This document shows positions 29,001 to 61,840 of a stretch of 64,000 nucleotides of DNA, in pieces; positions within the stretch are counted from its first letter, which is position 1, and each line of letters begins with the position of its first letter. The stretch spans positions 64,001 through 128,000 of the forward strand of contig CAWDVR010000002.1 in the NCBI GenBank assembly GCA_963805975.1. Reading direction: 5' to 3'. Position numbers and translations under genes: made by a program. Origin of the DNA: an uncultured Acidobacteriota bacterium. Its GTDB lineage: Bacteria; Acidobacteriota; Thermoanaerobaculia; Multivoradales; SZUA-115. Under the pieces are notes generated by a model, which was given only the letters and a program-made list of their open reading frames with translations, searched no databases and had not been told where the DNA came from.

Positions 29001-31595
29001 TCACTCGGCCGCTTTCGGGAGCGTCTTGAAAGTCAGCCGTTCGAGCGACCAGGTCACGGGCAAGTCCAAGGGTTCGACGCCGCGGCTTGACGAGCCGGTC
29101 TGCGAGAGCAGCTCCTCGAGCAACGTGGTGCCGCGCGGGCCACGCGATCGGACTCCCGGAAACTGCACCACCCAGGGGTTGGGTATGGGTTCCTCGGTGC
29201 TGAGCAGGAAGTAGGTATCAGTGCCGAAAGGCTCACGGATTCGGAATATGTCCCGGGCTCCGACCTGAATCTCGTTGGGCCACCGGCCCGAGGGGGCGGT
29301 AACGATGGGGAAGCGATTCTCGACGCTGCCGAGCGCACCGCGCGGGAACAGCAGGACGCTGTTACCAAAGCTGTCGATGCTGAAGAAATAGAGATAGCGC
29401 GGAGCTCTGGCATAGGCGAGTGCTTGGGCATCGCTTTGCAGCACCAGTCCCAGCTTCTGGCCGGCATAGAGCTCGCCGTCACGGTGAATCTGGCCTGATT
29501 CTCCGCGCAGTGCAAAACGGTAAGGAAACTCGCTGCCCAACGGGGACTCGAGGGTCAGCCAGGCTCGGATCTTGGCGATGCGCAGCGCACTTTCGGTCAG
29601 CGTCTCCGCGCAGTTTTCGTTTTTTTCGTCGCACCAGTTGCTGCGCAGGGGAAGCGCAACCAGCTCCGGATCGGTCGCGCTCGCCTCCGGTCGGAGCCAG
29701 GCGAAGCTCATCTGACCCGCCACCAGGCGACCGACCAACAGATAGTGCGCGTCCGCCGGGTCCGAGACCCGTTCGACAGCGTCGTGCTGGCTGCCCTGCC
29801 CCAGATCGAGATGGCGCGCGAGGTCCGACGAAGAAGGCACGTTGACGAACAGGATTGGCTCTTTCGTTCCTGCCTGGAGCCGCCGCAGGATGTCCTTGCT
29901 CGCGGGCGTCGCGCCCAACGATTCGGGCACCCCGGCAGGATGGGTGAGCCACCATCCATCCTGCTTGCGGTACAGGACGTGCGTGGGCGTGCTCTCGGTC
30001 GGGTCCGTCACCCAGCGCACACCGCTCTTCTCGCTCAAATCGCAGAGCTGCCGAATCCAGGCCATTTGCTGGCTCCAGCTCGGGCCGGCTTCGGGAACCC
30101 ATACCTTCAAGGTGGGCTCGTTGGCAATGACCCAACGCGAGATGGCGACCAGCTCGCCCGCCGCAACCGGCTGCGGAGAGCGTCGCACGGACCTCGTGGC
30201 GACCACCCGCGCCTCGGCCGAAACCGGCCCCAAGACGCGAACCACGCGCAATCGCACGAGCTCCTCGTGGGGCGAAGAGCTCTGGAGATCGAGCTCCACG
30301 CCTTCGCGCAGACCGTGAATCCATCCCCCCTCCAGGATGACCGTGCCATCGGCGGAGGTTTTTTGAACCGCGATCATGCCGACCGACCGGGCCGAAGCCT
30401 GTTCATGGCCGAACAAGGGGCGTCGCTGGCGCTCCAAGGTGCCCGCGAGGACCGGCCGCTGCTGAGTCTCGCTGCCTTGCAGGAGAGCCCAGGCACGTTG
30501 AAACGTGACTTCGGCGCCCTCCCCGGGCAGCCCACGACCGAGCGCACTCAACAGGGCCTGCGAGAAGGCGCCGTGAATCTGTTTTGCCGGGTCTGAGATC
30601 TCGTAGGCCCGTTCGAAGTCCTGGGCCGCCGAGAGAATCAGCGCCCCGCGCTCTTCGGGTTTGCCGCCGGTCGGCGCCGAGTCCACCACACCACGCGTCG
30701 AGGCTGGCAGAAAACGTGGCGTCGCACTGGCCGGAATGCCGCGCGCGATGCTCCCGCTGTGGCAGCTGTCGAACAGGACTGTCAGCTTTGCGCCGGTGTC
30801 CAGGATCTGGTTGAAGAGTCGCGCCAGCTCCTTGTCGCGCAGGTCGTCGGCGCCCAGGTTGGAGTCCGCCGGCACCAGGCTCTCGTCGAGCTTGTCGTCT
30901 TCTTCGGAGGCCCGGTTGGGAACCTGCGACCCGTGGCCAGCATAGAAGAACACCAGCTCGTCGCCGCGCTTGGCAGAAGCCAGGAGGTGCTGCTCCAAGC
31001 CCTCGCGAATGGCCTGCCGCGTCGCAGCGCGATCGGTCAGCAGGAGCACCCCGGCAGCCGGAAAATCGTACTGCCCGATCAGCAGGTCGCGCATCGCTTC
31101 GGCATCGTTCACCGCGCCCCGCAGATTCCGCCAGCGCACTTGCTCTCGCGAGGCGACCGGCAACCCGGAGGTGTAGTCGTTGATGCCGACGATCAACGCC
31201 CGGCGCCTGGGAGCGGATGCGGAACGCCCCTCCGGAGGACGGGGCGCGGGAGCTCCCGTGGCCATGCCGGGCACTGGATCCGGCGTACCGAAAGGCACGG
31301 CACGAGTGCACGAGCGCACCCTCGCCACCGACAGCGCGAGGCCGCGAAGAATGCCGTGCCGCTGCACCGCTTCGCGCGAGTACTCCGAGCACGACGGCCG
31401 ATAACGGCAGCGGACATCTTCAGCCAGCCAAGGCCTGCCCAGCAGCTGATACTTCGCCACCGCCCAGTCGTAGGCTCGAGCCAGCTGCTGGGCCTGGGGT
31501 GGGCGCAGCGCATCGATCACCAAGGCCGTCAAGATCAGCCCGACGGCCAGCAGATAGGGCTCGGGCCTCTTCAGGTATTGCCGCAGTGCGGGCAT
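29001..31595 (-). CDS. YidD-like domain + caspase (peptidase C14) + DUF4384-like domain fusion
   Basis: TM/signal segment, CRYRPSCSEY..AVQRHG..RG...C..DPVP (YidD/haemolytic motif); ALIVGINDY, FYAGHG, FDSCHSG (His/Cys dyad); C-terminal YLYFFSID..LLFP..EPFGTD. Confidence 0.88.
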   Translation of the reverse strand: MPALRQYLKRPEPYLLAVGLILTALVIDALRPPQAQQLARAYDWAVAKYQLLGRPWLAEDVRCRYRPSCSEYSREAVQRHGILRGLALSVARVRSCTRAVPFGTPDPVPGMATGAPAPRPPEGRSASAPRRRALIVGINDYTSGLPVASREQVRWRNLRGAVNDAEAMRDLLIGQYDFPAAGVLLLTDRAATRQAIREGLEQHLLASAKRGDELVFFYAGHGSQVPNRASEEDDKLDESLVPADSNLGADDLRDKELARLFNQILDTGAKLTVLFDSCHSGSIARGIPASATPRFLPASTRGVVDSAPTGGKPEERGALILSAAQDFERAYEISDPAKQIHGAFSQALLSALGRGLPGEGAEVTFQRAWALLQGSETQQRPVLAGTLERQRRPLFGHEQASARSVGMIAVQKTSADGTVILEGGWIHGLREGVELDLQSSSPHEELVRLRVVRVLGPVSAEARVVATRSVRRSPQPVAAGELVAISRWVIANEPTLKVWVPEAGPSWSQQMAWIRQLCDLSEKSGVRWVTDPTESTPTHVLYRKQDGWWLTHPAGVPESLGATPASKDILRRLQAGTKEPILFVNVPSSSDLARHLDLGQGSQHDAVERVSDPADAHYLLVGRLVAGQMSFAWLRPEASATDPELVALPLRSNWCDEKNENCAETLTESALRIAKIRAWLTLESPLGSEFPYRFALRGESGQIHRDGELYAGQKLGLVLQSDAQALAYARAPRYLYFFSIDSFGNSVLLFPRGALGSVENRFPIVTAPSGRWPNEIQVGARDIFRIREPFGTDTYFLLSTEEPIPNPWVVQFPGVRSRGPRGTTLLEELLSQTGSSSRGVEPLDLPVTWSLERLTFKTLPKAAE

Positions 31596-31960
31596 CGTGC
31601 GCTGGCCTCGAGTCGCTGATTGTTGCAGTGAGGGCATCGGATCAAGTTACCCTGTGGGCGCGAGAACAGATAGATCACGAGGCCGATCACGCTGGTCAGC
31701 ATGACCAGCACCATCCACATCACAGCGCTGTCCATGCCGCGCGACTTCGCATCTCTCGCCACCCAGACGAGGAGCGCGATGTTGAGCGCGAAGATTGCGA
31801 TGGGTACGAGGATCAGGGTACCTGTAAATGCGCCACAGGTGCCGCAAGCAGCGCAGGCGACGGCGTCTTCCTGGGGATCGGACGGCTGGAAGGCGAACAG
31901 TGTGGGAGCAAGGCCTAGAAAGGCCAGAGCTGCCGCAACCAGAGCTTTGCGATGGCTCAT
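31571..31960 (-). CDS. Small membrane protein with a PLDc_N-like TM hairpin and a C-terminal zinc ribbon
   Basis: Signal peptide, CAACGTC, WVARDAKSRG..W..IGLVIYLFSRP, CPHC-x10-CPHC. Confidence 0.8.
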   Translation of the reverse strand: MSHRKALVAAALAFLGLAPTLFAFQPSDPQEDAVACAACGTCGAFTGTLILVPIAIFALNIALLVWVARDAKSRGMDSAVMWMVLVMLTSVIGLVIYLFSRPQGNLIRCPHCNNQRLEASARCPHCGNT

Positions 31961-32055
31961 CGGTTTCTCCATGAATTCGTACGGTCGATGGCAGGGCCCC
32001 CGACGCGATGAGTGGAAGGCTCGATGCACTGTGTTCTGCACCGTTAGACACGCGC

Positions 32056-35000
32056 TCAGGGCCTTTGTGGGGCCTCGACGATGCGGATGGCTTGGCGGCT
32101 GGTGCTGAGCGCAACGGCTGTCAGGTCGGGCGCTTTTCCGCGCTGTAGAAAAGCCTCGTCGAGCAGCGGCGCAAGCGGCCCCAAGCGCTCGCGCTCGCCA
32201 CGGCTGAGGCCGGAGAGCCGCGGCAAGCGCAGGGGCGAGAAGTCGATGGGCTCGGCGCTGGCGATCAGCAACAGCACATCGACCCCCAGAGGCTTGGTTA
32301 CCTGAAATACCTCGTTCAAGGTCCGGGGCCTGGGCTTGGCACTTGCCCTTTCACGCGCTCCGGGAGGCGGCCAGATCACGGCGATGTCTCCATCGGACAT
32401 CAAGTCGAGCACCGAGATGAAGGCGGCATCGTCACTGCCGGTGATCCGCAGCTCGAAGAGGCTGTCGAGCGGCAGCTCGATCTCCTCTCCGAGCGTGCGC
32501 ACCTGTTCTCGCGGATGGGCGACTACGCGACAGCTCTGGCGCGTCCCCGTGGTCGGGTCGGGGCAGTCCAGGAAGTCGACCGGCACCACCTCGAGCTCGG
32601 TGTGCAGGCGCGCATCGTACAAATCGAGCCGGCGCAGGTAGCGGTTCAGCGCCAGCCGGGGCGCGAGATCGGTCGCGGTGTCGCGGACCAGGAAAGCGCG
32701 TGCCGTGACGAGCTCGTCGTAGGCCACCGGCGAGGCCAGCTCGGCAATCGCTTCGTAAGGGGAGGCCTCCGAGATGCGAGCACCGGTGAGTGGATCGCCG
32801 ACCGCGGGCCCGGAGGCTCCTGCCGGATGGATCTCCAGCTCGGAGCCGACGGTGAGACCGGCCAGCAATCCAGGCCGCAGGCGGACCCATCGGTCCTTGC
32901 CGGCGATCGGGATCACCGTAAAGTACGGCAGCTGCCACGTCATCGGGGCTTCCAGGAAAAGCGGGCTGTCGAGCACGCCCTCGGCCTGAAGAACATTCGA
33001 CACCTTGCCGCGCAAGGCGGCTCGGGCTCGCTCGGCCAGCTCGCGATAGGTGAGCGGCGGTGGATCCTGAGCCAGCTCCCGGCTGATCGCCCACGTCAGA
33101 CTGCCCACGCGTTCCAGGTCGTGGCGCTTCACTTCGAGCGCCCGCTCCCCGGAACGCGACGCGGAGAGCACGATCAAGGGCGCCAAGCCCTCTTCATGGA
33201 TTTTCATCCCGCGCACGCCGTCGACGAGCCCCGAGATCATGTCTTCGCCCCGCGCCCCGGTGCCGGAGTGGCAGGCGTCCAGCAGCACCACGACTTGCCC
33301 TGTCGGCCCCAATCGGCGGCGCAACCGCTCGAGCAGCTCGCCCAAAGCGTCGTCGCGCAGATAGCGCTCGATACCTTCGCCGAGCGCACCCGGAGCTTCG
33401 TCGACAGGGGCGTCATACGGCACCAGCGCTTCGTCATAGCCGTCGAGCTCGTCACCGGGCTCGTCGTCGGGCAGCAGGCGGCCGTGGCTCGCCACGAAGA
33501 GCAGCGCCAGGTCCCCAGGTCGACTGGGCTCGATCAGCGCTTGCTCGACGGCGCTCACGATCCCGGCGCGAGTGGCATCGCGATTCAGCAACTCGCGGAT
33601 CGCCGACGGCGAGAATCCTCGGCTCTCGAGCGTGGTTCGCATCAGCACCACGTCTTGCTCCGAGGCGATCCTGCGCCAACCACTGCCGGCGGGGTATTCA
33701 CCGATCCCGACCAGGAGAGCGCGCCTGGCGGCAGGGCCGCGAGCGGCCCGCGGCGCGGGCAGCACCGCCGCTTCCGGCTCGGGAGGAGGCGGGGCCATCT
33801 CACCCGTCAGCGTGAAGGCTCCCCAGAAATAAGGAGCTCGAAAACGCTCGTCCGCGAGCAGCGCCAGCTGCGCCTGGCGCAGGGCCTCGCTGGCCGGCTG
33901 GCCCGCACGCAGCAAGCGATAGAACGAGACGGTGAGCTCCGCCGCCGCGAGGTCGTCGATCTTCCACAAGGTGGAAACCACGGCCGGACTGCCGGAGTAG
34001 AGGATGGCGCGCGCCAGGCTGGCGACCTCGTCACCGGCGCTGCGCTTGCCGAGCGCGGTCTCACAGGCCGAGAGCATCACGAGATTGACGCCGGAAAGAT
34101 CCACGCCGCTCAGCAGCTCGTGCACCTCCAGATTGCCGTCCTGGGCCTCGTCCGGTGCCAGGGCGATGCGTGTGAACGAAGAGCTGTTGGCGTTGTAGAG
34201 CCCGTGGGCCGCCAAGTGAACGAGATCGATCTTGCCGCCGAGGCCGTGCAGCTTGCTCTCGGTGGCTTCGCCGTCCAGCCAAGGCCGAGTACCCCAGATC
34301 TCGGCCACTTGACGCGCTTCGGCAGCGGCACCCGGCAAGAGAGGCAGCCGAGGGTCGGTGGCGGCCGGTGCTCCCAGGACGAGCGCACGGCCCTCGAAGG
34401 AGGTTTCCTTGGCGCGCAGAAATGGCAAGGCACTCGCCGACGGCAGGTACGACAACGTGTAGTCCTCGAGCAGGTACCTGCCCGTGTCCGGGTCCCGCAG
34501 GGTGGCGAAGGGAAGGTAATGGAGCACGCCGTGCGGAACGAGCACCACCCTCGTGCTCCCGAGCTTGGTCTTGAGAGGTGAGAACAGCCGCCGGTAGAGC
34601 CTCGTCGCACGCTCGAGGTCATCCGGACAACCGGAGATCACCTCGGCACCCCGCGTGGCGCTGCCTGCGTCGCGACCGAGCGCCGCCGAAAAGCACAGCA
34701 CGTCTTCGATCCCTGCCGTGCCCAGGTCGAGCGCAACGTGCTCGAGGCTCGTCCGGTTGGCCACCCAGACATGGGCCCTTGTCCCCGAGATGAAATAGCT
34801 CACTAGGCTTTCCGCCGGTGCCAGGCTCTGCTGCACGGCAGCGAGGTCGAGCGGCTCGATGGTGACGAGCGCGGCGTACTCGGGGCTGGTGACTTTGATG
34901 CGTGTCATCAAACCCTCGAGATCCGCCTTGGCATGGCCGATGTCCCGTTCGAGGTGGAGGCGCTCGGCGCCGGCGGCCGACGGCAGCTCGCGCTCCCAGC

Positions 35001-36978
35001 GAGCGATCGCCTGGCGCAGTGCGCTGGCATGCTCGGTCAGCCCCAGGTCGCCACCTCCGGTCGCGGTGATACGCCGGTTCCCCAGCTGTTGCAAGAAGGC
35101 GCGGGCACGGGCGCGCTCGGCATAGGAGAACGCCTCCGACACTTGCCCCTGCTCGATCAGCATCTGGATGATGGCGTCGTAGAAGACGTGACGGCCGCTG
35201 CCGAGGTAAGAGGACAGGAGATCCGTGTGGCGCAGCTCCTGCGCACCCCGCTCCATCACGGCAATCGCCTGGCGCAGCGTCGTGAGAGCTTGCGCGTGCC
35301 TGCCCTCGCGATAGTCGAGTGTCGCCAGAGCGGCCGACAGCAGGGCCGTCAGATCGGCATTCTCGAGCTTGCGGGCCTCTCCCAGTGCGTTCGACCAGTG
35401 GCTACGCGCCAAGTCGATTTTTCCGCTCTCCAGGGCAGCGTGGCCAAGATGGAACTCGGAAACGAGGGTGAGCTCAACGGGTTGCGCGCGCCTCTCGGTA
35501 GCGCCGTTCTGGGGAGGCGCCGCGGAGGGTGCGGTTAGTGCGCGATGTAGCTGATCGCGCCAGGGATCTTGCCCCGGGATCCTCTGCAAGAGCTCGGACA
35601 GCCGGGCTCGCAGCTGCCCGGCGTCGAGGCCGCCCGGCTGCCCGCTTTGGATCTCCGCCAGCAGGCTCAGCAGAGCCTGTGCCGGCATCCACTCGCTCTC
35701 GACCGCGGCCGCTTGCCCGCGCTCCAGCATCGAGCGCGCGCTCGCCTCGGATGCCAGCATGAAATAGACCTCCACCAGGGCAGCACTGGACGCGGCCTCG
35801 AGCAGGACCTGACCCCGTTGGCCGAAGATCGCGACCGCCTCTTCGAGGAACCGCGCGGCGTCTCCATAAGCACCCCGCTGGTAGGCCAGCTGGCCACGAT
35901 CCGACTGAATCGTCGCCAGCCGTAGGGAGTTCCCGCTGGCGCGAGCGCGGCCCAGGGCCTCGACCAGCGTCTGCTCCGCCTGGTCGAAGAGGTTCTGGTC
36001 GAGGTAGAGCGTGGCGCGACTTTCGAGTACCGATGCGTGACGTGCCGAGTCGCCGTCCTCGGTGGCCAGGGCCAGCGCCCGGTCGTTCCAGGACAGTGCA
36101 GGCCCGAAGTGGCCGGCCAGGGCGTCGATCTCGGCCAGCCGCCGGAGCGCGGCGATCTGCATCCGATGGTCCTTGGCGAAGGAGAACAAGCTGAACATGC
36201 CGGCGTTCTCGAGCGACTTCTCCAGATGCGCCTTGGCTTCTTCGAGTCGCCACTGTTGCCGTCGCAGCTCACCCCAAGCACCATCCAGCGACGTCACGAA
36301 CAGCCCCCCGAGAAGCTCCGACTTCGCTTGTGCCTGCTCGAGCTCTTGCTCGGCCTCCTCGATCCGGCCCAGGTCCAGGAGCACGAACACCCTTTCACCG
36401 CGCGCCGCTCCCTCCATCACGCTTGCCAGCATAGGTGTTATCAGCGCCAGCATCGGCCCGGCTCCTTCGAGCTGGCCGGTGGGGGCACCAAACAGTCGCC
36501 CCATCGCCAGGAAGCCCTCGAGCGAGGCCGGGCGCCCGGCAAGAGTGAGCTGATGGAGCTGCTCGATCGCGCTGTTGAAATGTGCCAACGCCCTCTCGCT
36601 GTGCCCCAACATGCGATCGGACATTCCCTGTATCACCAGCACCATGCTGGCGGCAAAGAGGTCGCCGCTACTGGCGAAGCGCGCCGACGACGCCTCGAAA
36701 TCCGCCGCCGCGCGGCGCTCGTCTTCTGCGGCGAGCGCGGTCAGTCCACGCACCAAAAGCGCCAGCGCCTCTCCTTGGCCATCGCCGATGCTGCGATAGA
36801 GCTCCAAGGCCTGCTCCACGCCTGCGACCGACTCTACCGAGCCCTGGAGCGCCCGCTGGACCTGGTCGCTCAGCAAGGCTTCGGCCCGTGCACGAATCTC
36901 CTCGGGAGATTCCGCCGCGAGTGGAACCGTGAGCAGGGTGAAGACGATGGACAGTGAAACCACGGTGGATCTCGACAT
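32056..36978 (-). CDS. Secreted TPR-CHAT-caspase(C14)-DUF4384-like multidomain protease
   Basis: Signal peptide, TPR-like helices, CHAT (PHGVLHYLPF, HLAAHG, LSACET, PYFWGAF), caspase (ALLVGIGEY, VASHG, LDACHSG). Confidence 0.9.
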   Translation of the reverse strand: MSRSTVVSLSIVFTLLTVPLAAESPEEIRARAEALLSDQVQRALQGSVESVAGVEQALELYRSIGDGQGEALALLVRGLTALAAEDERRAAADFEASSARFASSGDLFAASMVLVIQGMSDRMLGHSERALAHFNSAIEQLHQLTLAGRPASLEGFLAMGRLFGAPTGQLEGAGPMLALITPMLASVMEGAARGERVFVLLDLGRIEEAEQELEQAQAKSELLGGLFVTSLDGAWGELRRQQWRLEEAKAHLEKSLENAGMFSLFSFAKDHRMQIAALRRLAEIDALAGHFGPALSWNDRALALATEDGDSARHASVLESRATLYLDQNLFDQAEQTLVEALGRARASGNSLRLATIQSDRGQLAYQRGAYGDAARFLEEAVAIFGQRGQVLLEAASSAALVEVYFMLASEASARSMLERGQAAAVESEWMPAQALLSLLAEIQSGQPGGLDAGQLRARLSELLQRIPGQDPWRDQLHRALTAPSAAPPQNGATERRAQPVELTLVSEFHLGHAALESGKIDLARSHWSNALGEARKLENADLTALLSAALATLDYREGRHAQALTTLRQAIAVMERGAQELRHTDLLSSYLGSGRHVFYDAIIQMLIEQGQVSEAFSYAERARARAFLQQLGNRRITATGGGDLGLTEHASALRQAIARWERELPSAAGAERLHLERDIGHAKADLEGLMTRIKVTSPEYAALVTIEPLDLAAVQQSLAPAESLVSYFISGTRAHVWVANRTSLEHVALDLGTAGIEDVLCFSAALGRDAGSATRGAEVISGCPDDLERATRLYRRLFSPLKTKLGSTRVVLVPHGVLHYLPFATLRDPDTGRYLLEDYTLSYLPSASALPFLRAKETSFEGRALVLGAPAATDPRLPLLPGAAAEARQVAEIWGTRPWLDGEATESKLHGLGGKIDLVHLAAHGLYNANSSSFTRIALAPDEAQDGNLEVHELLSGVDLSGVNLVMLSACETALGKRSAGDEVASLARAILYSGSPAVVSTLWKIDDLAAAELTVSFYRLLRAGQPASEALRQAQLALLADERFRAPYFWGAFTLTGEMAPPPPEPEAAVLPAPRAARGPAARRALLVGIGEYPAGSGWRRIASEQDVVLMRTTLESRGFSPSAIRELLNRDATRAGIVSAVEQALIEPSRPGDLALLFVASHGRLLPDDEPGDELDGYDEALVPYDAPVDEAPGALGEGIERYLRDDALGELLERLRRRLGPTGQVVVLLDACHSGTGARGEDMISGLVDGVRGMKIHEEGLAPLIVLSASRSGERALEVKRHDLERVGSLTWAISRELAQDPPPLTYRELAERARAALRGKVSNVLQAEGVLDSPLFLEAPMTWQLPYFTVIPIAGKDRWVRLRPGLLAGLTVGSELEIHPAGASGPAVGDPLTGARISEASPYEAIAELASPVAYDELVTARAFLVRDTATDLAPRLALNRYLRRLDLYDARLHTELEVVPVDFLDCPDPTTGTRQSCRVVAHPREQVRTLGEEIELPLDSLFELRITGSDDAAFISVLDLMSDGDIAVIWPPPGARERASAKPRPRTLNEVFQVTKPLGVDVLLLIASAEPIDFSPLRLPRLSGLSRGERERLGPLAPLLDEAFLQRGKAPDLTAVALSTSRQAIRIVEAPQRP

Positions 36979-45888: not shown

Positions 45889-46302
45889 ATGTCGAAGATC
45901 GTCCCCGCCTTCGTCGCCTCGATGCTGCTGACCGTCGCAGTACACGGCGACAACTCGGGCCTCGTCACCTATGACGAGTTCCTGTCTTCGCGCGGCCTCA
46001 CTCAGTCGCAGGTGGACTGCCGAAGTCCCAAGACCGAGGATGTGCTCAACGTCCGCAGTCAGGACTGGGATCGCAGTCAGACGGTCTGCGAAGTATGGAT
46101 CAAGGAGAAGGTCACGCCCGAGCAGCGGCTCACTTTCAAAGACGGTGCGCAGGTGTATATGACCGTGCGACGCTGGACCGCGCCCAAGCCGGTGCCACCG
46201 CAGCAGGTCGAGGTTTCGGATTCCTTCGTGGTGAAGGAGGACAGCAAGCCCGAAACCAGTACCAAGGCGTACAAGCGCTACGTCGGCAAGCAAGAGCCTT
46301 GA
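45889..46302 (+). CDS. Small secreted hypothetical protein
   Basis: SD AAGGAGGAG, signal peptide MSKIVPAFVASMLLTVAVHG, one Cys pair. Confidence 0.75.
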   Translation: MSKIVPAFVASMLLTVAVHGDNSGLVTYDEFLSSRGLTQSQVDCRSPKTEDVLNVRSQDWDRSQTVCEVWIKEKVTPEQRLTFKDGAQVYMTVRRWTAPKPVPPQQVEVSDSFVVKEDSKPETSTKAYKRYVGKQEP

Positions 46303-53798: not shown

Positions 53799-56493
53799 CG
53801 CGCGCAGATCCTCGGAGACTCGCCCGGTGGCTCTTGGTTTCGATCCATCGTGCTTGCGGATCTCCGGCGAGGGTGTAGCCCGCCCAATAGAAAGGCGCGG
53901 CGAAGCGTTCCTGGGCGAGCAGCGACAGCTGCGCTCCGCGAAGCGCCTCCGCCACCGGCGCGCCCGCTTTCAGGCGGCGATAGAAAGCGGTCATGAGCTC
54001 CGCAGAAGCAACATCGTCAACGCTCCAGAGGGTCGAGATCACGCCCGGACTGCCGGCGTAGAGGAAGGCGCGTGTCAGGCCCACGATCTCGTCACCGCCG
54101 CTGTGCTCACCCAAAGCTGTTTCACAGGCGGAGAGGACAACCAGGTTGACGCCCGTCAGGTCGAGCTCGGAGTAGATCTCGTGTACCTCCAGGTTGCCGT
54201 CGTCTTTGCCGTCCCTGGAAGGAGAAAGTGCCAGGCGGCTGAACCCCGCGCTCCGCGGAAAGTAGAGGCCGTGCGCCGCGACATGGACGATGTCGACCTC
54301 GCCCTCCAGCTCTTTGAGCGCCGACTCGCTGGCGGCCATGCCGAGCAAGGGTTCGGTGCCCAGAAGCTCTGCCACCTCCTCGGCCTCGCGGCGGCTTCCC
54401 GCCAGCGGCGGCAACTCGGGGTCGGCAGGGATGGGCTCTCCGAGCACCAAGGCGCGGCCGGTGAATGGAGACTCCTTGTGGCGGAGGTACTGGAGAACGC
54501 TGGCGCTCGGGGCGTAGGTGAGCGTGAAGTCCTCGATCAGATAGCGGCCGGTGGCCGGATCCCGCAGCGCGGCGAAGGGAACGTAGTGCAGGACGCCGTG
54601 GGGAATGAGGATCAGCTTGGAGCTGTGCAGATGAGGCCGTAGCGGTGCAATGAGCTGTTGATAAAGACCCTCCGCATTCTGGTCCGCGGTGCTGCAGCCG
54701 GCGAGCGGCTCGCTGCCTCGAACGCTGTGCCTCACCGCGTCGGAGAAGCACAGCGGAGTGGAGACTTCGCCCTCGAACGGCGGCAGAGAGAACCAGCTGA
54801 AGGTGTCACGGTCGATCACCCAGGCATGGATGCGGAAATCCGTGACGAAGAAGCTGATCAGGGTGACACCCGGCTCGAGCGCGGCCTGCACTTGGGCCGC
54901 TTCCACAGGATGGGCCTTGACCACGGAGGCGAGCTCTGGGTCCAGGGCCACGGTTCGAGCACGCAGGCCTTCGTGGAGCTGGCGCAACTGGAGCAGCGTC
55001 GACTCCATGGCCCGTCGTTCGTCACCGATCGCCAAGGCCATCTGCCGCTCGGTTACAACGATGCGTGCGGCGAGCTGGTCCAGGTCCCGAGAGAATGAGC
55101 TCGCGTGGGAGCGTTGCTGCACGGGACGGGTGTTGCCCAGCGCCTGGAGCAGGGCTCGGGCCTTGGCCAGCTCGGCGACGGCGAAAGCCTCCCTCGTGCG
55201 CAGCTCCAGGCTCAACATCTCGAGCAGCGCGTGGTAGAAGAGACGCGTGACCCCACCACGGTAGGCCTGAATCGATTCCTGCCGCTGATTCAAGTCTCCA
55301 GCCACCTCGAAGCAGGCGACGGCGGAGGCCGCGCGCTCGATCGCTTCGTCGAACCGACCCTGCAGCCAAAGAGCAGCGCTCAGGCCGGAGAGGTGAATCC
55401 CGGCGAGCTGCGCGTCGCCCACTCGGAGCTCTTCCGCCAGCGCGATCTCCCAGGCCCGAATGGCTCCTGTACGGTCGCCCAGATGGTAGAGGATGGGAGC
55501 CCAAATCCCGGTGCGCCATGCCTTCGTGCGGTGGAACTGGCCCAGGCCGACCGCCAGCGTTTGGTCGCCGTTGGCGCAACGGCTCGCGCCTGGAATTCCT
55601 CCTGCGCTTTGCCGCAGAGTACCCGGCGCAGCTTGGGGGCCTTGTCGTTGCAACGAGCGATGGATTCCAGCAAAGTCCATCCTGAGCTTCTGCTTCTCGC
55701 CGAGCCATATCTGAAACGAGCCCAGCTTGCGGATGGCCTCGGCCGTCGTCGTTGCAAAAGGCAGATGATGCTCGTCGAGCATGCGCTCGAGCTCCCTGGC
55801 CGCACTCGAGCTGCCCCTTCCTGGGCCGAGCATGCTGTAGACAGAGGGCAGGAGCGTCGTCGCGGTCCATTCGGTCAGCGTGGCTATCAGCTGTTCGAGC
55901 AGGGCGCTCTGAGGCTCCCTGGCCAACATTCGTGATTGTTCGAGGTAGGCAATACCTTCCTCGTATCGCCCGTCCAAGGCCAGAATAAGACCCCGTTGGG
56001 CTTGCGCCACCGCGGTCATGGCTCGGTTGTTGCTACGCTCGGCAGCGGACATAATTTCTTCGTTGGTTTCGAGCGCGGCGTCAGGATATCCGAAGGCCAG
56101 TAGCAGCCTGGAGCGATGCATGAGAACGCTGGGGTAGGCCCAGGGGTGGAACGAGAGGCGGGCGAAGAGCAAGGCACGGTCGTTCTTCTCCAGGGCCGCG
56201 CTCGGGTTGCCGCGCATGGTTTCGAGCTCGGCGCTCCAGAGCAGCCGCGTCGTCTCCATCATGCTCAGGAAACGGTACCCGTATGCAGACTCCGCAGGGA
56301 TCACCAGCTCTTCGTCAGCGCCGTGATGCCATAGGCCGCGCATCGCCAGTCTGACGGACGCCGCCATCAGGGCGAGCTGCGCCAATGTCGCGCCGACGAG
56401 CAGTCCCGACAGCAAGACCTGGCGTAGCGGGTGGCTCCGTGGGCGGACGCTGCCGAGAGCTTTCGGCTCCTCGCTTCGAGGTCCCACTCTCAC
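53776..56493 (-). CDS. Membrane-anchored TPR-like-CHAT protease (paralogue of 51240-53798)
   Basis: N-terminal TM, IPHGVLHYVPF, HVAAHG, LSACET, PFYWAGY. Confidence 0.9.
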   Translation of the reverse strand: MRVGPRSEEPKALGSVRPRSHPLRQVLLSGLLVGATLAQLALMAASVRLAMRGLWHHGADEELVIPAESAYGYRFLSMMETTRLLWSAELETMRGNPSAALEKNDRALLFARLSFHPWAYPSVLMHRSRLLLAFGYPDAALETNEEIMSAAERSNNRAMTAVAQAQRGLILALDGRYEEGIAYLEQSRMLAREPQSALLEQLIATLTEWTATTLLPSVYSMLGPGRGSSSAARELERMLDEHHLPFATTTAEAIRKLGSFQIWLGEKQKLRMDFAGIHRSLQRQGPQAAPGTLRQSAGGIPGASRCANGDQTLAVGLGQFHRTKAWRTGIWAPILYHLGDRTGAIRAWEIALAEELRVGDAQLAGIHLSGLSAALWLQGRFDEAIERAASAVACFEVAGDLNQRQESIQAYRGGVTRLFYHALLEMLSLELRTREAFAVAELAKARALLQALGNTRPVQQRSHASSFSRDLDQLAARIVVTERQMALAIGDERRAMESTLLQLRQLHEGLRARTVALDPELASVVKAHPVEAAQVQAALEPGVTLISFFVTDFRIHAWVIDRDTFSWFSLPPFEGEVSTPLCFSDAVRHSVRGSEPLAGCSTADQNAEGLYQQLIAPLRPHLHSSKLILIPHGVLHYVPFAALRDPATGRYLIEDFTLTYAPSASVLQYLRHKESPFTGRALVLGEPIPADPELPPLAGSRREAEEVAELLGTEPLLGMAASESALKELEGEVDIVHVAAHGLYFPRSAGFSRLALSPSRDGKDDGNLEVHEIYSELDLTGVNLVVLSACETALGEHSGGDEIVGLTRAFLYAGSPGVISTLWSVDDVASAELMTAFYRRLKAGAPVAEALRGAQLSLLAQERFAAPFYWAGYTLAGDPQARWIETKSHRASLRGSARDDHTPLE

Positions 56494-57194
56494 CCCACGT
56501 ACAGCGGCTGCTCGCGGCTGCTCTGGAAGCGGCCGAGGCGATCCTCGAACAGCGCTTCGATGGAGTAGGTGCCCGAGGGGGCCTTGGCCGGTATCGTGAC
56601 TTCCGAGCGCGTCTCGACGATGCCGCCGCCGCGCGGCACCACGAAGCTGTCGGGCCCGAGGGCATTCATGTACTGGCCGCCGTATTTGATGCCCGTGAAG
56701 GCTTCGATCTTGAGGTCTTCCTCGCGGTTCGGCCCGATCACCAGGTAGCGCACGTAGACCTTGGCCGTGCCGCCGGGTGCGACCCGGGCCGGCTCGAAGC
56801 GCACCTCCTCGACCGCGAGGATGTAGCCCTGGGAAGAGTCGTAGCTCAGGCGGGCCATGGCCTCGTCACGGCTGCCGTAGAGCATGTCCTGCCGGCGCCC
56901 GATGAGATATCCGGCGACCCCGCCGACCACGGCACCGGCGACCGCGCCCTTGACCGGGTCGTGCCCGAGAATGCGCGCCCGCAAGAGGCCACCGGCTGCC
57001 CCGAGCACCGCACCGGTGATGGCGGCCTTCTTCCGGCGCGGCTGCTGCCGCAGCCACGACTTGAGGGGATGGCTGGGCGCGCCGCTGGTTGCGCCCACCG
57101 TGCGGGGAACGCTGCCGCCGCCCGCAAGCGGCGAAGAGGCGCAGCCGGAGAGCTGGAGAGCACAAAGCAGGAGAGCGGTGATCCATTTCTTCAT
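56490..57194 (-). CDS. Glycine-zipper lipoprotein
   Basis: Lipobox LSGC; GAVLGAAGG and GAVAGAVVGGVAGY zipper; C-terminal Ig-like domain. Confidence 0.82.
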   Translation of the reverse strand: MKKWITALLLCALQLSGCASSPLAGGGSVPRTVGATSGAPSHPLKSWLRQQPRRKKAAITGAVLGAAGGLLRARILGHDPVKGAVAGAVVGGVAGYLIGRRQDMLYGSRDEAMARLSYDSSQGYILAVEEVRFEPARVAPGGTAKVYVRYLVIGPNREEDLKIEAFTGIKYGGQYMNALGPDSFVVPRGGGIVETRSEVTIPAKAPSGTYSIEALFEDRLGRFQSSREQPLYVG

Positions 57195-57208: not shown

Positions 57209-58888
57209 TCAACGGTCGTCGTCATCGTCACGGTCGATTTCGGTCTGCTTCTTGCGCCGGGGATTGAGCAAGGTCGCATCGGTCTTGCTGCCGGCGCCCT
57301 GCCAGAGCTGTTTCATTCCCTCCTCCGCCGTGGCCACGAGCTCGCGCGCCCGCGCGGCGACGTCTGCGGGAGCCCCGGCCTCGGCGGCGAGTCGTTGCGC
57401 GAGCTGCTTGGCTTCGGGGTAGCTCGCGGCGGAGAGCAGCGCGTCGATCTCCGTCAGCCGGCGCTCCCAGGCTTGGCGCTCGGCCTGGGCTGCCGCCTGA
57501 GCCACCGACTGGGCATGCTGGGCGGCGGTGCGGCGCTCGATCTCTTGCTCGGTGATGCGGTTGCTGAGGAGCGACAGCGTGGCCATCTCGTCCACCAGGT
57601 CGGTGCGGTGCTGGTACGAGCGGTTCAACAGCTCCTGCACCTTCTGCCGGGCTTCCTCGAGCCGGCCTTCGTCACACCAGCGCTCCGCCTGGGCCGTACC
57701 CGCTGCGAGCTCGGCACGCAAACGCACCAGCGCTTGCTCGCGGATCGCCTGCGTCGGATCGGGACGAGGCGGCTCGCGATCGCGCCGCACGGGCGGCGGT
57801 GGCGGCTCGGGATGGGGTGCAGCGGGTGCCTGGATCGGTGCCGGGGGAGGTTCGACGATCACGTACTGGTTTGAGATGGTCGGCGATGGCGGATCTCGCT
57901 GCTGCCACCCGTCGAGCAGCTTCCCGAGTAGCGTCAGGGTCGTCAGGGCCAGGATGACGGCCCCCCAGACCGTCCGCGCTCTTCTAGGGCGGACATTCGG
58001 CTGCCCCCTGTCCCCGACCCGGTTGCCGGCGCTGCGCGCGTGCTCTCTCGGCAGCGCCGCCGGCTCGACAGCATGGAGCGCACGCTCGAACGCCGCGGCG
58101 CTCGAGAAACGCTCGCGCGGCTCCTTGCGCAGCGCCTTCGACAGAGCTGCGCAGACCACCGAGCTGGCGGCGAGCGTGCTCAGAACTTGTTCCGCCGGCC
58201 GCTCCAGATGCAGGCGCTGGATCTCGTAGTCGCTCTTGCCGTCGAACGGCGGCCGGCCCGCCAGCAGCTCGAAGAGCAGCACGCCGGCGCTGTAGATGTC
58301 GCTGCGATGGTCCAGGCTCTGCGGGCTCTTGATCTGCTCCGGGGACATGTAGACCGGGGTACCCACGGTCTGTGAGGTCTTGGTACGCCGCTCCTCGCCC
58401 ACCCGTAGCGCAATGCCGAAGTCGGTGAGCTTCGCCACTCCGGTGGCGCTCACCAGCACGTTGCCGGGCTTGACGTCCCGGTGGATGATGCCTTGCGAGT
58501 GCGCGTAGTCGAGGGCCGAGAGCACCTGCCCCAGGATGCGCAGTGCCTGGTCTTCCGGCAGGCCCCGGCCGCCCCGCTCCCGCAGCAGCTCCTCGAGACT
58601 GCGGCTGCCGAACAGCTCCATCACCAGGTACGCGACGCCCGCGACCTCGAGCACGTCGTGGACGGCGACGATGTGCGGATGCTGGAGCCGCGCCTGCGCC
58701 CGGGCTTCGGCGGCGAAGCGCTCGCGCAGCTCGCCGTCGCGGGTCAGCTCGAAAGGCAGAGCCTTGATCGCCACCTCGCGATGCAGCCGGTCGTCCACCG
58801 CGCGGTAGACGACTCCCATGCCGCCGCGGCCCAGCAGGCCGAGCACCCGGTAGGGGCCCAGCAGCGCGGGCAGAGGTGCGGGTGCCAT
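57209..58888 (-). CDS. Hanks-type Ser/Thr protein kinase with a TM and an extracytoplasmic helical domain
   Basis: GRGGMG, VAIK, HRDVKPGN, DFG, GTPVYMSPEQ, SDIYS; alternative TTG start at 58894. Confidence 0.95.
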   Translation of the reverse strand: MAPAPLPALLGPYRVLGLLGRGGMGVVYRAVDDRLHREVAIKALPFELTRDGELRERFAAEARAQARLQHPHIVAVHDVLEVAGVAYLVMELFGSRSLEELLRERGGRGLPEDQALRILGQVLSALDYAHSQGIIHRDVKPGNVLVSATGVAKLTDFGIALRVGEERRTKTSQTVGTPVYMSPEQIKSPQSLDHRSDIYSAGVLLFELLAGRPPFDGKSDYEIQRLHLERPAEQVLSTLAASSVVCAALSKALRKEPRERFSSAAAFERALHAVEPAALPREHARSAGNRVGDRGQPNVRPRRARTVWGAVILALTTLTLLGKLLDGWQQRDPPSPTISNQYVIVEPPPAPIQAPAAPHPEPPPPPVRRDREPPRPDPTQAIREQALVRLRAELAAGTAQAERWCDEGRLEEARQKVQELLNRSYQHRTDLVDEMATLSLLSNRITEQEIERRTAAQHAQSVAQAAAQAERQAWERRLTEIDALLSAASYPEAKQLAQRLAAEAGAPADVAARARELVATAEEGMKQLWQGAGSKTDATLLNPRRKKQTEIDRDDDDDR

Positions 58889-58890
58889 CG

Positions 58891-60252
58891 TCAAGGCTCC
58901 GCCGGCACCGGTGCGGGAGAGGACACGCCCGCACGGGCCAGAAAGCTCCGGATGGCACCCAAGGCGACCGCCTCGACGGTGCCGGCTCCATAGTCTTTCG
59001 TCGCCACCGATCGACCGGCCAGCGAGATCGTCCTCGCCGCCGCCAACCGGCTGCGCGTGAGGCCCACCAGCTCGCCACGCCGGTTGACCACCGGGCCACC
59101 CCCGCCGGCCACGGCAAAGGAGCGGTCGAGGGTCATTCCTACGGGCTGGCCGCCGGCATCCCGATCGAGGCGTGCCACGAAGGCCTTGATGAAGAGCGGG
59201 TCCGCCAGCGGGCCCGCGCGGGTGCCTGTCGGGCGCATGCCGGCGGCGCTCAGCAGAGGCTCGGCAACGGTCGATGGATACAGCAGGAGGCCCACGTCCT
59301 GCGCCACTTCGAGCGGCTCGCCGGCCGCCGCGACGGCAAGCGGGGTCGTCAGGCGCAACGGGATCTGCAGCAGCGCCAGATCGGCGTTGCTGGCGAGGGC
59401 ATAGACCGTGGCGGGAACCGGCTCCTGGCCCGGGAGCTGCACGGAGAGCGTATCGATGGCGGCCTTGAGCTTGCCGGAACCGGTGAGATCTTCCAGGGGA
59501 TGGCCGATGGCTTCACGCCAGGGTCGCGCCAGGTGAGCCGACGTCAGCACCAGGGTGGGCGCAATCAGCACGCCCGAGCCCCAGGCGGTCCCATTCTGGA
59601 TCGAGCCCGAGCCCGGCGTGACGAGGCTGTAGCGGCTCTCCACGCGTGCCACGGCGGCGCGAGCACGCCCTTCCACCTCCGTCCAGGCCGGTGCCGCGCC
59701 GCGCCCGAGTGACTGCACGCTCGCTCTCTGCGCTGTGCGCTCGGAAGCCCAGAAGCCGATCAGGCCGAGCGCACCGAGCAGCAGGAGCAGCCCGGTCGAG
59801 CCGGCGAGCAACGCTCGGTGCCGCGCTCGACGCCGGCGCGCCTGGTCGTCGTCGCTCAGGGCACCGCGCAGCTCCGCGCGCAGGGTCTCGCGACCGATCG
59901 CCGGCTTGGCGGCAACCTCGCCGGACATCAGCAGCACGCGCAGCTCCGGGCCACCGGCGGCAAGGCGAATGCGTGAGCCCTCCGGCACCGCCAGGCGCTC
60001 GAGAGGCGGGCACTTGGCTCCGTTCAAGAAGGTGCCGTTCGAGCTTTGCTGGTCTTCGAGCCAGAGCCGGCCTTGCTGGTAGAGCAAGCGCGCATGGAGC
60101 CCGCTCACCAGATCGTCCGCGAGGTCGTGAAACTTCACGTCGCAAGTGGCATTGCGGCCCAGCGTGAGGCTCTGCCCCTCGGCGAGCTTGAGTCGTTGAC
60201 TGTGGCTGGCGAGGGATCCGGATTGATGCCGGAGTTCGATCTCGACACTCAC
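58891..60252 (-). CDS. FHA-TM-trypsin-like domain protein (catalytic Ser apparently absent)
   Basis: FHA (LGR, VSGLHA, SSNGTFLNG), TM, GSGVLI..LTSAH, DLALL, GGGGP in place of GxSGGP; GTG start overlaps the upstream stop. Confidence 0.85.
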   Translation of the reverse strand: MSVEIELRHQSGSLASHSQRLKLAEGQSLTLGRNATCDVKFHDLADDLVSGLHARLLYQQGRLWLEDQQSSNGTFLNGAKCPPLERLAVPEGSRIRLAAGGPELRVLLMSGEVAAKPAIGRETLRAELRGALSDDDQARRRRARHRALLAGSTGLLLLLGALGLIGFWASERTAQRASVQSLGRGAAPAWTEVEGRARAAVARVESRYSLVTPGSGSIQNGTAWGSGVLIAPTLVLTSAHLARPWREAIGHPLEDLTGSGKLKAAIDTLSVQLPGQEPVPATVYALASNADLALLQIPLRLTTPLAVAAAGEPLEVAQDVGLLLYPSTVAEPLLSAAGMRPTGTRAGPLADPLFIKAFVARLDRDAGGQPVGMTLDRSFAVAGGGGPVVNRRGELVGLTRSRLAAARTISLAGRSVATKDYGAGTVEAVALGAIRSFLARAGVSSPAPVPAEP

Positions 60253-61010
60253 TTGAGATCTCCTTGATCGGTCGGTTTGCGCCCACCGGATGGCATCGGC
60301 GGCAGTACCAGCAACACCAGCTCGGTGGAGCCACAACGGATCCAGTCCCGGTCCATGAGCTCGACCTGGTTGCCGGCGCCGAGTTCCTCGCCGTTGATCC
60401 AGGTGCCGTTGGTTGACATGCGGTCCGAGAGGTAGAAGCGTCCGTTGCGCGCCAGCAGCAAGGCGTGCTCGCTCGAAACCCGCGCGTCTTCGCGCAGGCA
60501 GATGTCGTTGGCGGGATGGGCGCCCAGAAAACTCTTGCCCTGCCGCACGCCGAAGAGGGCGCCGCCAGGTTTCAGCGCCGGAGCGGCCAGCACCGCCACC
60601 AGCTCACGCGCCGGCTCGCCCGCGACGGCTCTCGGGGCGACGGGATCGAGGCGCGTCGGCGGGCCGCCGGCACGAGCCTCTGCGAGAACCGGTGGAGCCG
60701 GGGCTTCCCGTGGCTCCGGCTCCACGCTACCGAGCCGGGTGCGACGGCCGGCTCCCGGCGGGGCCACCTCGAGACGTGTGCCGCGGGCCTCGGCGGCACC
60801 GGCGGCATGTTCCAGGCGCGTGTGCGCGGGGGCGGCCGGCGGCGCGGCTCCCAGGAGCGCGCAGTAGGGACAGGTCGCCCAGCTCGGATCGATGGGATGC
60901 CCGTTGGCACAGATCGGCTCGCCCGCATCCGCCACCAGGCTCGTGCCGCAGGACAAGCAGGCTCGCTCGCTCGCCGGGTTGAGCGTCTGGCAACGCGGGC
61001 AGCGGTTCAC
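60249..61010 (-). CDS. Zinc-ribbon + FHA domain protein
   Basis: CPRC..CLSC..CANGH..CPYC; FHA (VSSEHA, STNGTWING). Confidence 0.88.
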   Translation of the reverse strand: MNRCPRCQTLNPASERACLSCGTSLVADAGEPICANGHPIDPSWATCPYCALLGAAPPAAPAHTRLEHAAGAAEARGTRLEVAPPGAGRRTRLGSVEPEPREAPAPPVLAEARAGGPPTRLDPVAPRAVAGEPARELVAVLAAPALKPGGALFGVRQGKSFLGAHPANDICLREDARVSSEHALLLARNGRFYLSDRMSTNGTWINGEELGAGNQVELMDRDWIRCGSTELVLLVLPPMPSGGRKPTDQGDLK

Positions 61011-61840
61011 GATCCCCTCCGCGCCACCGCCGCCGGCCGGGTCGGTCGCAGGGCTGTACCCAGAGGCGCCTCGGTCAGCCGCAGACAGATCACCGAGATG
61101 TTGTCGTCGCTCGCGGCGGCGAGCGCGGCCTCGACCAGGCGCGCGCAGATCTGCGCTGCCGTGCCGCCGGTGTTGGCCAGCCGCGTCATCTCGGCATCCG
61201 TCAGGCTGCCGTGCAGCCCGTCGCTGGTGAGCAGCAGCAGATCACCGGCGTCGAGCGGCAGCGGCAGGTGCACTTCCGGCTCGAAGGGCGCCTCCTGGCC
61301 GACGGCGCGCTGGAGCACGTTGCGCTCGGGGTGGGAGAAGGCTTCGTGCTCGGAGAGGTGGCCGTCGCGCACCAGCTGCTCCACCAGGGAGTGGTCGGCT
61401 GTCAGCCGCAGGAGCGACCGGCCCCGCAGCAGATAGGCCCGGCTGTCTCCCGCGTGCGCCAGGTGCAGGATCGCCCCCGCACGGCCGTTCTCGATCACGG
61501 CGACGAGGCCGGTGGCGCCCATGCCCGCCTGCGCCCGCACCCGCGCGGCCTCGCGCACTGCATCGTGAGCGGCGGTGAGGGCCTGCGCCAGTGCCGCCGC
61601 CCACGGCTCGGAGCCGTCGCTCGCCCGCAGCCGCTCACCGATGGTCCGCACCACGATCTCGGCGGCGTCGCGGCCGGCTTCGTGTCCACCCATGCCGTCG
61701 GAGACGACGCCCACCACCTGTCCCGCGTCGCCGACCAGAACCAGCGCGGCATCCTCGTTCTCCGTTCGCACGGGACCACAGATCGAGATCACGGCGGCAT
61801 CGATGTCAGAGCGGCCGGGCAGCTGAAGTTCGGTCGACAC
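61007..61840 (-). CDS. PP2C/PPM family Ser/Thr phosphatase
   Basis: RTENED, SDGMGG, MGAT, GDSRAY, DHS, SDGL, DDNIS; probable GTG start at 61840. Confidence 0.93.
   Translation of the reverse strand: MSTELQLPGRSDIDAAVISICGPVRTENEDAALVLVGDAGQVVGVVSDGMGGHEAGRDAAEIVVRTIGERLRASDGSEPWAAALAQALTAAHDAVREAARVRAQAGMGATGLVAVIENGRAGAILHLAHAGDSRAYLLRGRSLLRLTADHSLVEQLVRDGHLSEHEAFSHPERNVLQRAVGQEAPFEPEVHLPLPLDAGDLLLLTSDGLHGSLTDAEMTRLANTGGTAAQICARLVEAALAAASDDNISVICLRLTEAPLGTALRPTRPAAVARRGS

Follow-up and report, generated by a model that had tools for sequence, protein, structure and literature searches.

The window analysed here, a 64,000-nucleotide stretch of DNA from an uncultured Acidobacteriota bacterium, carries a cluster of genes for clan CD proteases. 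A Pfam scan of 23 of its proteins detected eight clan CD domains in seven proteins, five of them CHAT (in proteins B, C, D, F and G) and three Peptidase_C14 (in A, B and E; 60-79 bits against a Pfam cut-off of 21.4). The sequences and a motif list place an intact His/Cys dyad in all eight, in agreement with the initial annotation of this DNA. DUF4384, which had been named there as a domain to search for, was matched in none of the 23 proteins scanned. Protein A (29001..31595, minus strand) consists of a YidD-like transmembrane domain fused to a metacaspase-like C14 domain (H221/C278), followed by a middle and a C-terminal domain, and its closest solved relatives are metacaspases. The adjacent gene (31571..31960, minus strand), formerly listed as a Zn ribbon, does encode a Zn-ribbon protein, but one of 129 aa with a signal and two transmembrane segments (PLDc_N). 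B (32056..36978, minus strand) joins a signal, TPR repeats and a CHAT domain to a second C14 domain and a C-terminal domain, and C (37003..39771, minus strand) has a TM-TPR-CHAT layout. An ECF sigma factor (40666..41223, minus strand) and its cognate single-pass anti-sigma (39833..40642, minus strand) follow, the latter comprising a helical cytoplasmic bundle, a transmembrane segment and an outer Ig/FN3-like beta-sandwich. The zinc-binding anti-sigma motif HxxxCxxC occurs in 11 of 39 relatives, while the window protein is devoid of Cys.

On the other strand lie D (41414..44674, plus strand), a lipoprotein TPR-CHAT of the DdvA-like type, and u361 (44678..45763, plus strand), its leaderless, beta-rich partner of 361 aa. 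Among solved structures, the D-family profile matches best a CHAT protein of 991 aa (8ROT, E 3e-16), with numbering that fits DdvA. Two signal-peptide proteins of no family, the small u137 (45889..46302, plus strand) and u465 (46414..47811, plus strand), are followed by E (47836..51252, minus strand), which combines Ig/CARDB repeats with a C14 domain, and by two TPR-CHAT paralogs of B, namely F (51240..53798, minus strand) and G (53776..56493, minus strand; start codon uncertain). Next come a glycine-zipper lipoprotein (56490..57194, minus strand), a transmembrane Ser/Thr kinase with a helical outer domain (57209..58888, minus strand), an FHA-TM-trypsin-like protein whose trypsin-like domain lies past the membrane segment and has no catalytic Ser motif (58891..60252, minus strand), a Zn-ribbon-FHA protein (60249..61010, minus strand) and a PP2C phosphatase (61007..61867, minus strand). 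The regulatory genes first reported here are all present, from the sigma and its transmembrane anti-sigma to the kinase, the lipoprotein, PP2C and both FHA genes. As context, the arm of an integrative element adjoins the cluster (26332..28840, plus strand; tyrosine integrase at 26479-27714, a 115-aa gene and a conserved 430 bp), and the first vWA gene of a vWA/Tubulin_2/GTPase-like operon (61947..64000, plus strand) continues beyond the window.

Export was judged from hydropathy and by eye rather than with SignalP. It is clearly predicted for B (signal), C (transmembrane segment) and D (lipobox LGSAC, with Cys at the lipobox position in nine of ten orthologous starts), moderately for F and G, and weakly for E (best 12-mer 1.78). 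Protein A itself carries no signal, and its export depends on the transmembrane part of the fused YidD-like domain. A signal peptide or transmembrane segment on all seven proteases, as first proposed, is thus plausible, with weak or indirect indications for E and A. The absence of membrane anchors behind the predicted signal peptides of B, F and G, together with the predicted secreted orphans u137 and u465 nearby and the phage-tail-like genes (labelled by eye) beside the cassette of one relative (G027), would suit exported weapons or maturation enzymes, induced by the sigma factor for predation, competition or surface-protein processing, with Arg-Gly (RG) loops serving only for pro-domain removal and the anti-sigma not being a substrate. 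This explanation appears quite improbable, as D is lipid-anchored according to its predicted lipobox, few residues of the anti-sigma ectodomain are as well kept as this same RG, and anti-sigma and TPR-CHAT are joined in one chain in DdvA of Myxococcus.

Comparison with other loci has shown that the conserved core is the sigma/anti-sigma pair, divergent from the lipoprotein TPR-CHAT (D) and then u361, plus a metacaspase-like C14. These genes co-occur across many genomes and contigs. A CHAT gene lies directly upstream of u361 in 39/40 loci, C14 was present in 18/18 u361 loci and a divergent sigma in 14 of these 18 by script (16 after reading gene calls), and the order sigma-anti-sigma-CHAT was found in all 13 anti-sigma loci read; neither these counts nor the ortholog counts given below are independent, because most orthologs belong to a single class and near-duplicates occur among the loci. 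A candidate fusion of anti-sigma and TPR-CHAT in genome G017 was set aside, having an internal signal peptide and the look of a frameshift. No shared promoter motif was found. A is a core member minus its YidD part, the fusion having been seen in the source genome (G000) only. The PLDc_N/Zn-ribbon protein is likely a passenger that arrived with the YidD-like gene: in genome G170 this protein and a YidD-like gene that stands alone form a pair, and the 20 kb read there contain no protease. YidD does not recur with the core either, and its place in the system is not supported.

The remaining genes are less constant. C, E, F, G, u137 and u465 are not conserved members. Among 182 other loci, no match was found for u137, for the TPR part of C or for the N-terminal and Ig parts of E, which argues against E as a conserved sensor and leaves it accessory; u465 has one homolog (56%). 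The PP2C and FHA genes were likewise unmatched in the 182 loci and the kinase has no conserved RG, so the phospho-switch thought to be wired into the system is not upheld, although the kinase and the glycine-zipper lipoprotein do recur, at the same locus as the core in four of eight genomes. The source genome holds 22 CHAT matches in 20 genes, 13 of which lie within 7 kb of an ECF-like sigma match (about 14% expected by chance). The majority of its CHAT genes belong to simple one-sigma, one-CHAT modules. It also has a second protease cluster (G000:C3:600-36000), which is preceded by a homologous integrative-element arm.

An RG loop is conserved in the anti-sigma, in the C14 of A and in the CHAT proteins B and G, and is present also in C and F. 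In the anti-sigma it is R166-G167 (40142..40147, minus strand), located after the first strand of the outer domain, in a loop of the model, and is a candidate for the site-1 cut. R166 is kept in 39/39 selected anti-sigmas, being one of only three invariant columns in an alignment of 28% identity, and G167 in 32/39; in an unselected set the values are 26/32 and 30/32. In A, R285-G286 just past the catalytic Cys (30738..30743, minus strand) is a candidate activation site. Both this RG and R316-G317 (30645-30650, minus strand) are found in 10/10 orthologs, compared with 5-6 of 10 for two C-terminal RGs and 0-3 for the eight others; R316 begins the second subdomain. In B, R776-G777 (34648..34653, minus strand) lies in a loop C762...C784 before CHAT and is kept in 6/6 orthologs with the flanking Cys in each, the seven other RGs of B being kept in 0-3 of 6, the background being about 7% per window. 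A further RG, R1243-G1244 (33247-33252, minus strand), follows the C14 Cys of B. Comparable loops occur in C (C609-x3-RGRG-x6-C623; RG at 37930-37935), F (C552...R562-G563...C569; RG at 52110-52115) and G (C582...R592-G593...C600; RG at 54715-54720), all on the minus strand, so that four of the five CHAT proteins have an RG between two Cys just before CHAT. D is the exception, and a conserved RG is also missing after the catalytic Cys of the E C14 domain. This pattern fits D as an initiator and the others as putative Arg-cleaved zymogens, even if the conserved RG could be structural rather than a cut site.

The same loops may be explained without a cascade. Each protease would mature by cutting its own RG loop, as is known for orthocaspases and metacaspases (MaOC1 processes itself with no activator; PMC5756287), a single one or a housekeeping protease would make the site-1 cut in the anti-sigma, and the cluster would be a set of parallel sensors piled on an island. 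The prevalence of one-sigma, one-CHAT modules in the genome, the poor conservation of C, E, F, G, u137 and u465, and the position of the cluster against the integrase arm, with a GC content of 0.62-0.69 where the flanks reach values as high as 0.74, agree with this proposal. On the other hand, D, the C14 of A and B co-travel with the sigma pair in several genomes, and D is systematically without the loop kept by B-type proteins, the pattern that an initiator/effector split would give. Independent maturation is regarded as unlikely.

The closest precedent is the DdvA/DdvS system of Myxococcus xanthus (PMC11506125; PDB 8ROT/8RW5), an anti-sigma fused to a periplasmic TPR-CHAT, which means that known precedents are not all cytoplasmic, as had been supposed. 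Both systems have an ECF sigma, a single-pass anti-sigma and a TPR-CHAT with a His-Cys dyad, whose extracytoplasmic location is here a prediction from lipobox and hydropathy. For DdvA/DdvS a CHAT site-1 cut followed by RseP has been proposed (PMC11506125); the regulon under its control is a CRISPR/CBASS one. Unlike DdvA, the present locus has anti-sigma and TPR-CHAT in separate genes, an anti-sigma that has no zinc ligands and whose Ig-like ectodomain bears an RG loop, several CHAT and C14 proteases, a leaderless partner and no adjacent CRISPR locus. Among the ECF groups, CHAT has been linked with actinobacterial ECF54, and anti-sigmas carrying DUF4384 with ECF25. The SAVED-CHAT/PCaspase/PCc-sigma/PCi/PCk system of Haliangium ochraceum likewise unites CHAT, C14, sigma and Ser/Thr kinase in one locus, and its SAVED-CHAT activates C14 by cleavage (bioRxiv 10.1101/2023.06.23.546230). 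It is cytoplasmic and triggered by cA3 via SAVED, whereas here no SAVED was found on the window CHATs (Pfam shows TPR only), export is predicted, and both anti-sigma and kinase are transmembrane proteins. Because these two systems already cover the two halves of the logic, novelty in kind is not supported for the locus.

In Craspase (Csx29/Csx30/CASP-sigma; PMC10028731; bioRxiv 10.1101/2022.08.17.504292), a TPR-CHAT cuts an anti-sigma and relieves an ECF sigma, but the system is RNA-guided and cytoplasmic and cuts after Met or Leu. The window proteins reach 36-41 bits on the Csx29 model (cut-off 300), and the setting of a Csx29 equivalog, beside Cas7-11 and a CRISPR array, is not seen at the locus. 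No Cas protein was matched among the window proteins scanned, a search of the 96%-complete source genome for Cas1 found none, and the single array-like match of a simple repeat scan falls within a coding gene, in line with the reported lack of cas genes and array in the window. Co-occurrence and the candidate cut site conserved in both anti-sigma and proteases point to a clan CD module that works outside the cytoplasm, independently of CRISPR, and is linked to an ECF sigma/anti-sigma pair. With regard to metacaspases and orthocaspases (PMC5756287), A aligns in fold, dyad and acidic motifs with metacaspase-4, Yca1 and other members, and Arg/Lys specificity is expected: cleavage after Arg/Lys is the rule in those non-caspase C14 enzymes that have been characterised, and separases likewise cut after Arg (PMC11506125). 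A differs in its export signals, its extra middle and C-terminal domains and an Ala for the pocket Cys (LRGAVND where metacaspase-4 has LRGCVND), a residue needed for full activity in metacaspases (PMC5756287).

We consider it somewhat probable (about 0.55), judging from sequence, that this expanded sigma/anti-sigma/TPR-CHAT/C14 cassette with seven protease genes acts as an Arg-specific proteolytic relay in the envelope that ends in sigma release. A ligand at the TPR domain would switch on the candidate initiator D, which would cut the RG loops of B, C, F, G and the metacaspase-like C14 domains, and these would amplify the signal; since the loops are probably disulfide-clamped, the cut chains would stay linked. 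CHAT-to-C14 activation, for which SAVED-CHAT/PCaspase is a precedent, is suggested here by the conserved RG after the C14 Cys. The Arg specificity of D is an assumption, as CHAT proteases differ in specificity (cleavage by craspases is after Met or Leu; PMC11506125). One activated protease would then cut the anti-sigma at R166, detaching most of the outer beta-sandwich, and an RseP-type intramembrane protease would complete the cleavage and free the sigma, as reported for truncated DdvA (PMC11506125). Defence or a response to damage would be induced by the sigma, and the kinase-lipoprotein pair and the vWA/tubulin operons are likely to be outputs linked to it. The neighbouring operon (Tubulin_2, E 3.6e-45, and vWA by Pfam; GTPase motifs by eye in two genes, with no Pfam GAP1 or DO-GTPase match for the proteins scanned) shares vWA and Tubulin_2 with GTPase-centric conflict systems, in which paired TRAFAC GTPases and GAP1 occur along with tubulin, vWA, HSP70, kinase and PP2C genes (Kaur et al. 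2020, PMC7159879), and the kinase and lipoprotein operons of relatives similarly hold vWA, Tubulin_2 and HSP70/GrpE; sigma factors and CHAT, present at this locus, are not mentioned in the passages of that description consulted.

Several points count against the relay: the Ala in the pocket of A, its export through a fusion seen in one genome, the position of u361, which, being without a signal peptide, lies outside the predicted compartment of D and keeps its RG in part, and two results on DdvA, whose dyad mutants behaved like wild type and for which infection with phage Mx4 brought no visible autoproteolysis (PMC11506125). Loop Arg residues commonly contribute to binding, and the RG loops might be docking motifs rather than cut sites, with TPR-CHATs holding the anti-sigma (and u361), the dyads at rest and the signal acting by release. 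In DdvA, the active site is resting in the structure and the dyad mutants still repress DdvS (PMC11506125). Docking is nonetheless very improbable here, given that all eight dyads are intact, that RG follows the catalytic Cys where C14 enzymes get processed, and that Cys-flanked loops would suit two-chain activation. If the relay is real, caspase cascades would reach into the bacterial envelope, in the form of a multi-step clan CD zymogen relay that runs outside the cytoplasm. The split locus names testable residues (anti-sigma R166, C14 R285, CHAT R776/R613/R562/R592) and offers a candidate initiator (D) and a candidate ligand or substrate (u361), and purified proteins could address the targets and the order of cuts made by exported bacterial caspases.

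The u361 family has 181 representatives with conserved H46, N267, H294 and C353, and its C-terminal tail reads (R/K)G-x7-C (RG at 45710-45715, plus strand; RG or KG in 32 of the 45 closest rows and 42 of all 114). As the partner dedicated to D, the protein would most likely be a substrate with a cut near its own C-terminus. A more speculative reading, which we hold to be improbable, is a coagulation-like damage alarm: cytoplasmic u361, possibly a new fold, would meet the outward-facing D only when the cell or a neighbour breaks, D or A would clip its tail, the disulfide-clamped Arg-Gly zymogens would fire, and the anti-sigma would be cut, inducing the tubulin/vWA conflict system. In animals and plants, leaderless danger peptides are released by caspases and metacaspases, and u361 would then be their bacterial counterpart. 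Protease-effector defence modules (MBL, hydrolase, Pepco, EACC1, gasdermin; bioRxiv 10.1101/2025.11.14.688446) also place beside the protease a dedicated gene with a predicted cut near one end; u361 differs from these in that searches of Pfam, NCBIfam and solved folds gave no match for it and that export is predicted for its protease. With a confident model (pLDDT 90) that matched no solved fold in a wide fold search, u361 constitutes an attractive target for structure determination.

The cassette is real, conserved and uncharacterised, and is a variant of protease-controlled ECF signalling. Among 23 window ORFs scanned with Pfam, five carry CHAT and three carry Peptidase_C14, bearing out the eight clan CD domains in seven proteins of the initial annotation: A (29001-31595), a C14 protein with a fused YidD-like TM domain; B (32056-36978), combining CHAT and C14; the CHAT proteins C (37003-39771), F (51240-53798) and G (53776-56493); D (41414-44674), a lipoprotein TPR-CHAT; and E (47836-51252), with C14. 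The dyads are likewise intact, with both His and Cys present in all eight domains. The N-terminal export signal claimed for every protease stands only in part. From hydropathy and inspection by eye, a signal peptide is predicted for B and a TM segment for C, and D has a lipobox whose Cys is found again in 9/10 orthologous starts; the signal is moderate in F and G and weak in E, while that of A rests on its YidD-like TM domain. DUF4384, also named at the outset, was not reported by Pfam among the 23 ORFs. An FHA-TM-trypsin-like protein (58891-60252) has His and Asp motifs with no Ser at the GxSGGP position, and is a probable pseudo-protease.

Loci of u361, the leaderless 361-aa partner gene following D, have been fetched in 52 cases, five from genomes and 47 from metagenomes, with some near-duplicates. 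CHAT lies immediately 5' of u361 in 39 of the 40 loci with at least 400 nt upstream. C14 occurs in all 18 loci that extend 2.5 kb or more downstream; by script, sigma is divergent in 14 of 18, a figure that rises to 16 once gene calls are read. Sigma and CHAT adjoin the anti-sigma gene in 13/13 loci read in other genomes. In simple sigma-anti-sigma-CHAT modules (L104, L106, L108, L109, L110, L112, L113 and G000:C4:459287 of the source genome), the slot of u361 is often occupied by a gene for a leaderless Pro/Gly-rich peptide of 60-120 aa, with a conserved ~470-aa gene and C14 frequently coming next, reminiscent of the ddvS-ddvA-unknown-C25 order. Several loci have a conserved ~120-aa lipoprotein, a candidate inhibitor, between u361 and C14-A (L175:11125-11490, L177:11113-11478, L170:3502-3864, L133:2631-3017), in the slot of the small orphan u137. 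Locus L065 (G027:C195:15000-34999) carries two sigma/anti-sigma pairs with D, u361 and C14-A, adjoining genes labelled by eye as phage-tail-like (contractile injection).

DdvA/DdvS (PMC11506125) is the closest system, and the D-family profile has its best solved match in a CHAT protein of 991 aa, with His/Cys numbering that agrees with DdvA. The window cassette appears to work like DdvA, yet is not a DdvA member, because both the anti-sigma-CHAT fusion and the zinc site are absent. The Haliangium cascade (bioRxiv 2023.06.23.546230) has CHAT-to-C14 activation beside a sigma factor and a kinase, but is cytoplasmic. The cassette is not described in the accessible parts of the craspase papers, a protease-effector survey, the ECF reclassification (supplement) or an ECF review. 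Literature searches listed no paper on a sigma/anti-sigma/CHAT/C14 cassette that is split, exported and provided with RG sites, a result limited to openly available text without bioRxiv supplements, DdvA table S7 or the Haliangium journal version.

Gene content, dyads, linkage and the conservation of the Arg-Gly (RG) loop are observed. A relay ending in anti-sigma cleavage is favoured, with a probability of about 0.55. D would be the initiator, switched on by a ligand, and B, C, F, G and the C14 domains would be zymogens cleaved at RG; the anti-sigma would receive a site-1 cut at R166 and then be processed by RseP, as for DdvA, with a defence or damage response as the possible output. The proteases are presumed to be Arg-specific from the metacaspases (PMC5756287), which are the nearest solved relatives of A, and from separase. 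Against a relay, craspases cut after Met or Leu, autoproteolysis of DdvA was not observed according to PMC11506125, A is without the pocket Cys, and u361 lies outside the predicted compartment of D. The alternative, in which the same cut sites exist without a cascade, seems rather unlikely. The relay reading offers residue-level predictions and an initiator/zymogen pattern, and the cassette includes in u361 a partner of unmatched fold.

The proposed three-unit wiring has survived for the kinase and its neighbouring lipoprotein, and not for PP2C, FHA, YidD and E. Full-length lipoprotein matches occur in 8/250 other genomes of the class; in four (G125, G129, G159, G244), one locus holds kinase and lipoprotein together with sigma, anti-sigma, D, u361, C14-A and a B-type CHAT, and the kinase and lipoprotein continue into an operon of vWA, HSP70, GrpE and Tubulin_2. 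In G265 the lipoprotein is separated by ~10 kb from C14-A and a B-type CHAT, and neither sigma nor kinase accompanies them; no protease was present in the stretches examined in G276, G250 and G025. A 3-kb metagenome contig (L149) carries D, u361 (55% identical), the lipoprotein and the kinase end, oriented as in the window. Searched by tblastn against 182 other loci (1.6 Mb), PP2C, the two FHA genes, the trypsin-like domain, the N-terminal region and Ig part of E, the TPR of C, u137 and the signal-peptide orphan u465 gave no match. The PP2C/FHA genes may belong to the neighbouring divergent operon right of the window (G000:C2:125947-152092; L072, L073). This operon has three genes of vWA type, Tubulin_2, a second tubulin-like gene, two GTPase-like genes and one resembling the MrfA-Zn helicase, and recalls the GTPase-centric conflict systems described by Kaur et al. 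2020 (PMC7159879), which in one theme include kinase, PP2C and vWA. Among 201 genomes, the YidD-like domain of A has its nearest relative in an unfused 108-aa gene, whose partner is a copy of the 129-aa Zn-ribbon gene with 81% identity; the 20 kb read there contain no protease, so the YidD/Zn-ribbon pair is probably a passenger.

CHAT is matched 22 times in the source genome, over 20 genes. Of these 20, 13 have an ECF-like sigma hit no more than 7 kb away, compared with ~14% by chance, the 53 such hits including some non-sigma HTH proteins. The proposed CRISPR-independence agrees with the absence of Cas1 and, in a simple scan, of any CRISPR-like array from this genome. The relatives that carry names belong to the Thermoanaerobaculia or Acidobacteriota, and the anti-sigma ectodomain has mostly Acidobacteriota neighbours in the Atlas, so that the host is probably of the class Thermoanaerobaculia. 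A second cluster (G000:C3:600-36000) again contains C14-A, u361, D, sigma, anti-sigma and a frameshifted B-type CHAT. Both clusters begin after homologous integrase-element arms, one element copy flanks genes labelled by eye as relaxase-like, and GC is lower within the cluster, suggesting that the proteases are island cargo; the right end of the island was not found. The second cluster (G000:C3:609-35854; L074, L075) comprises four C14 and three CHAT genes, one CHAT frameshifted, together with a vWA gene, a C14-FGE fusion and a 1625-aa gene whose start is tubulin-like. The element family has near-identical integrase and 115-aa genes (window 26332-28840; G000:C4:566798-576107; C5:716075-718155; C3:1-431; C6:1491-6842), and contigs C5 and C3 probably join, since neighbouring stretches of the arm are matched at the end of C5 and at the start of C3. 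Elsewhere in the window, 16824-18758 encodes a DNRLRE/IPTL-CTERM protein and a metallo-hydrolase of SoxH-related type, the latter under all beta-lactamase cut-offs, and short REP-like inverted repeats at 26163-26293 are found at many genome sites.
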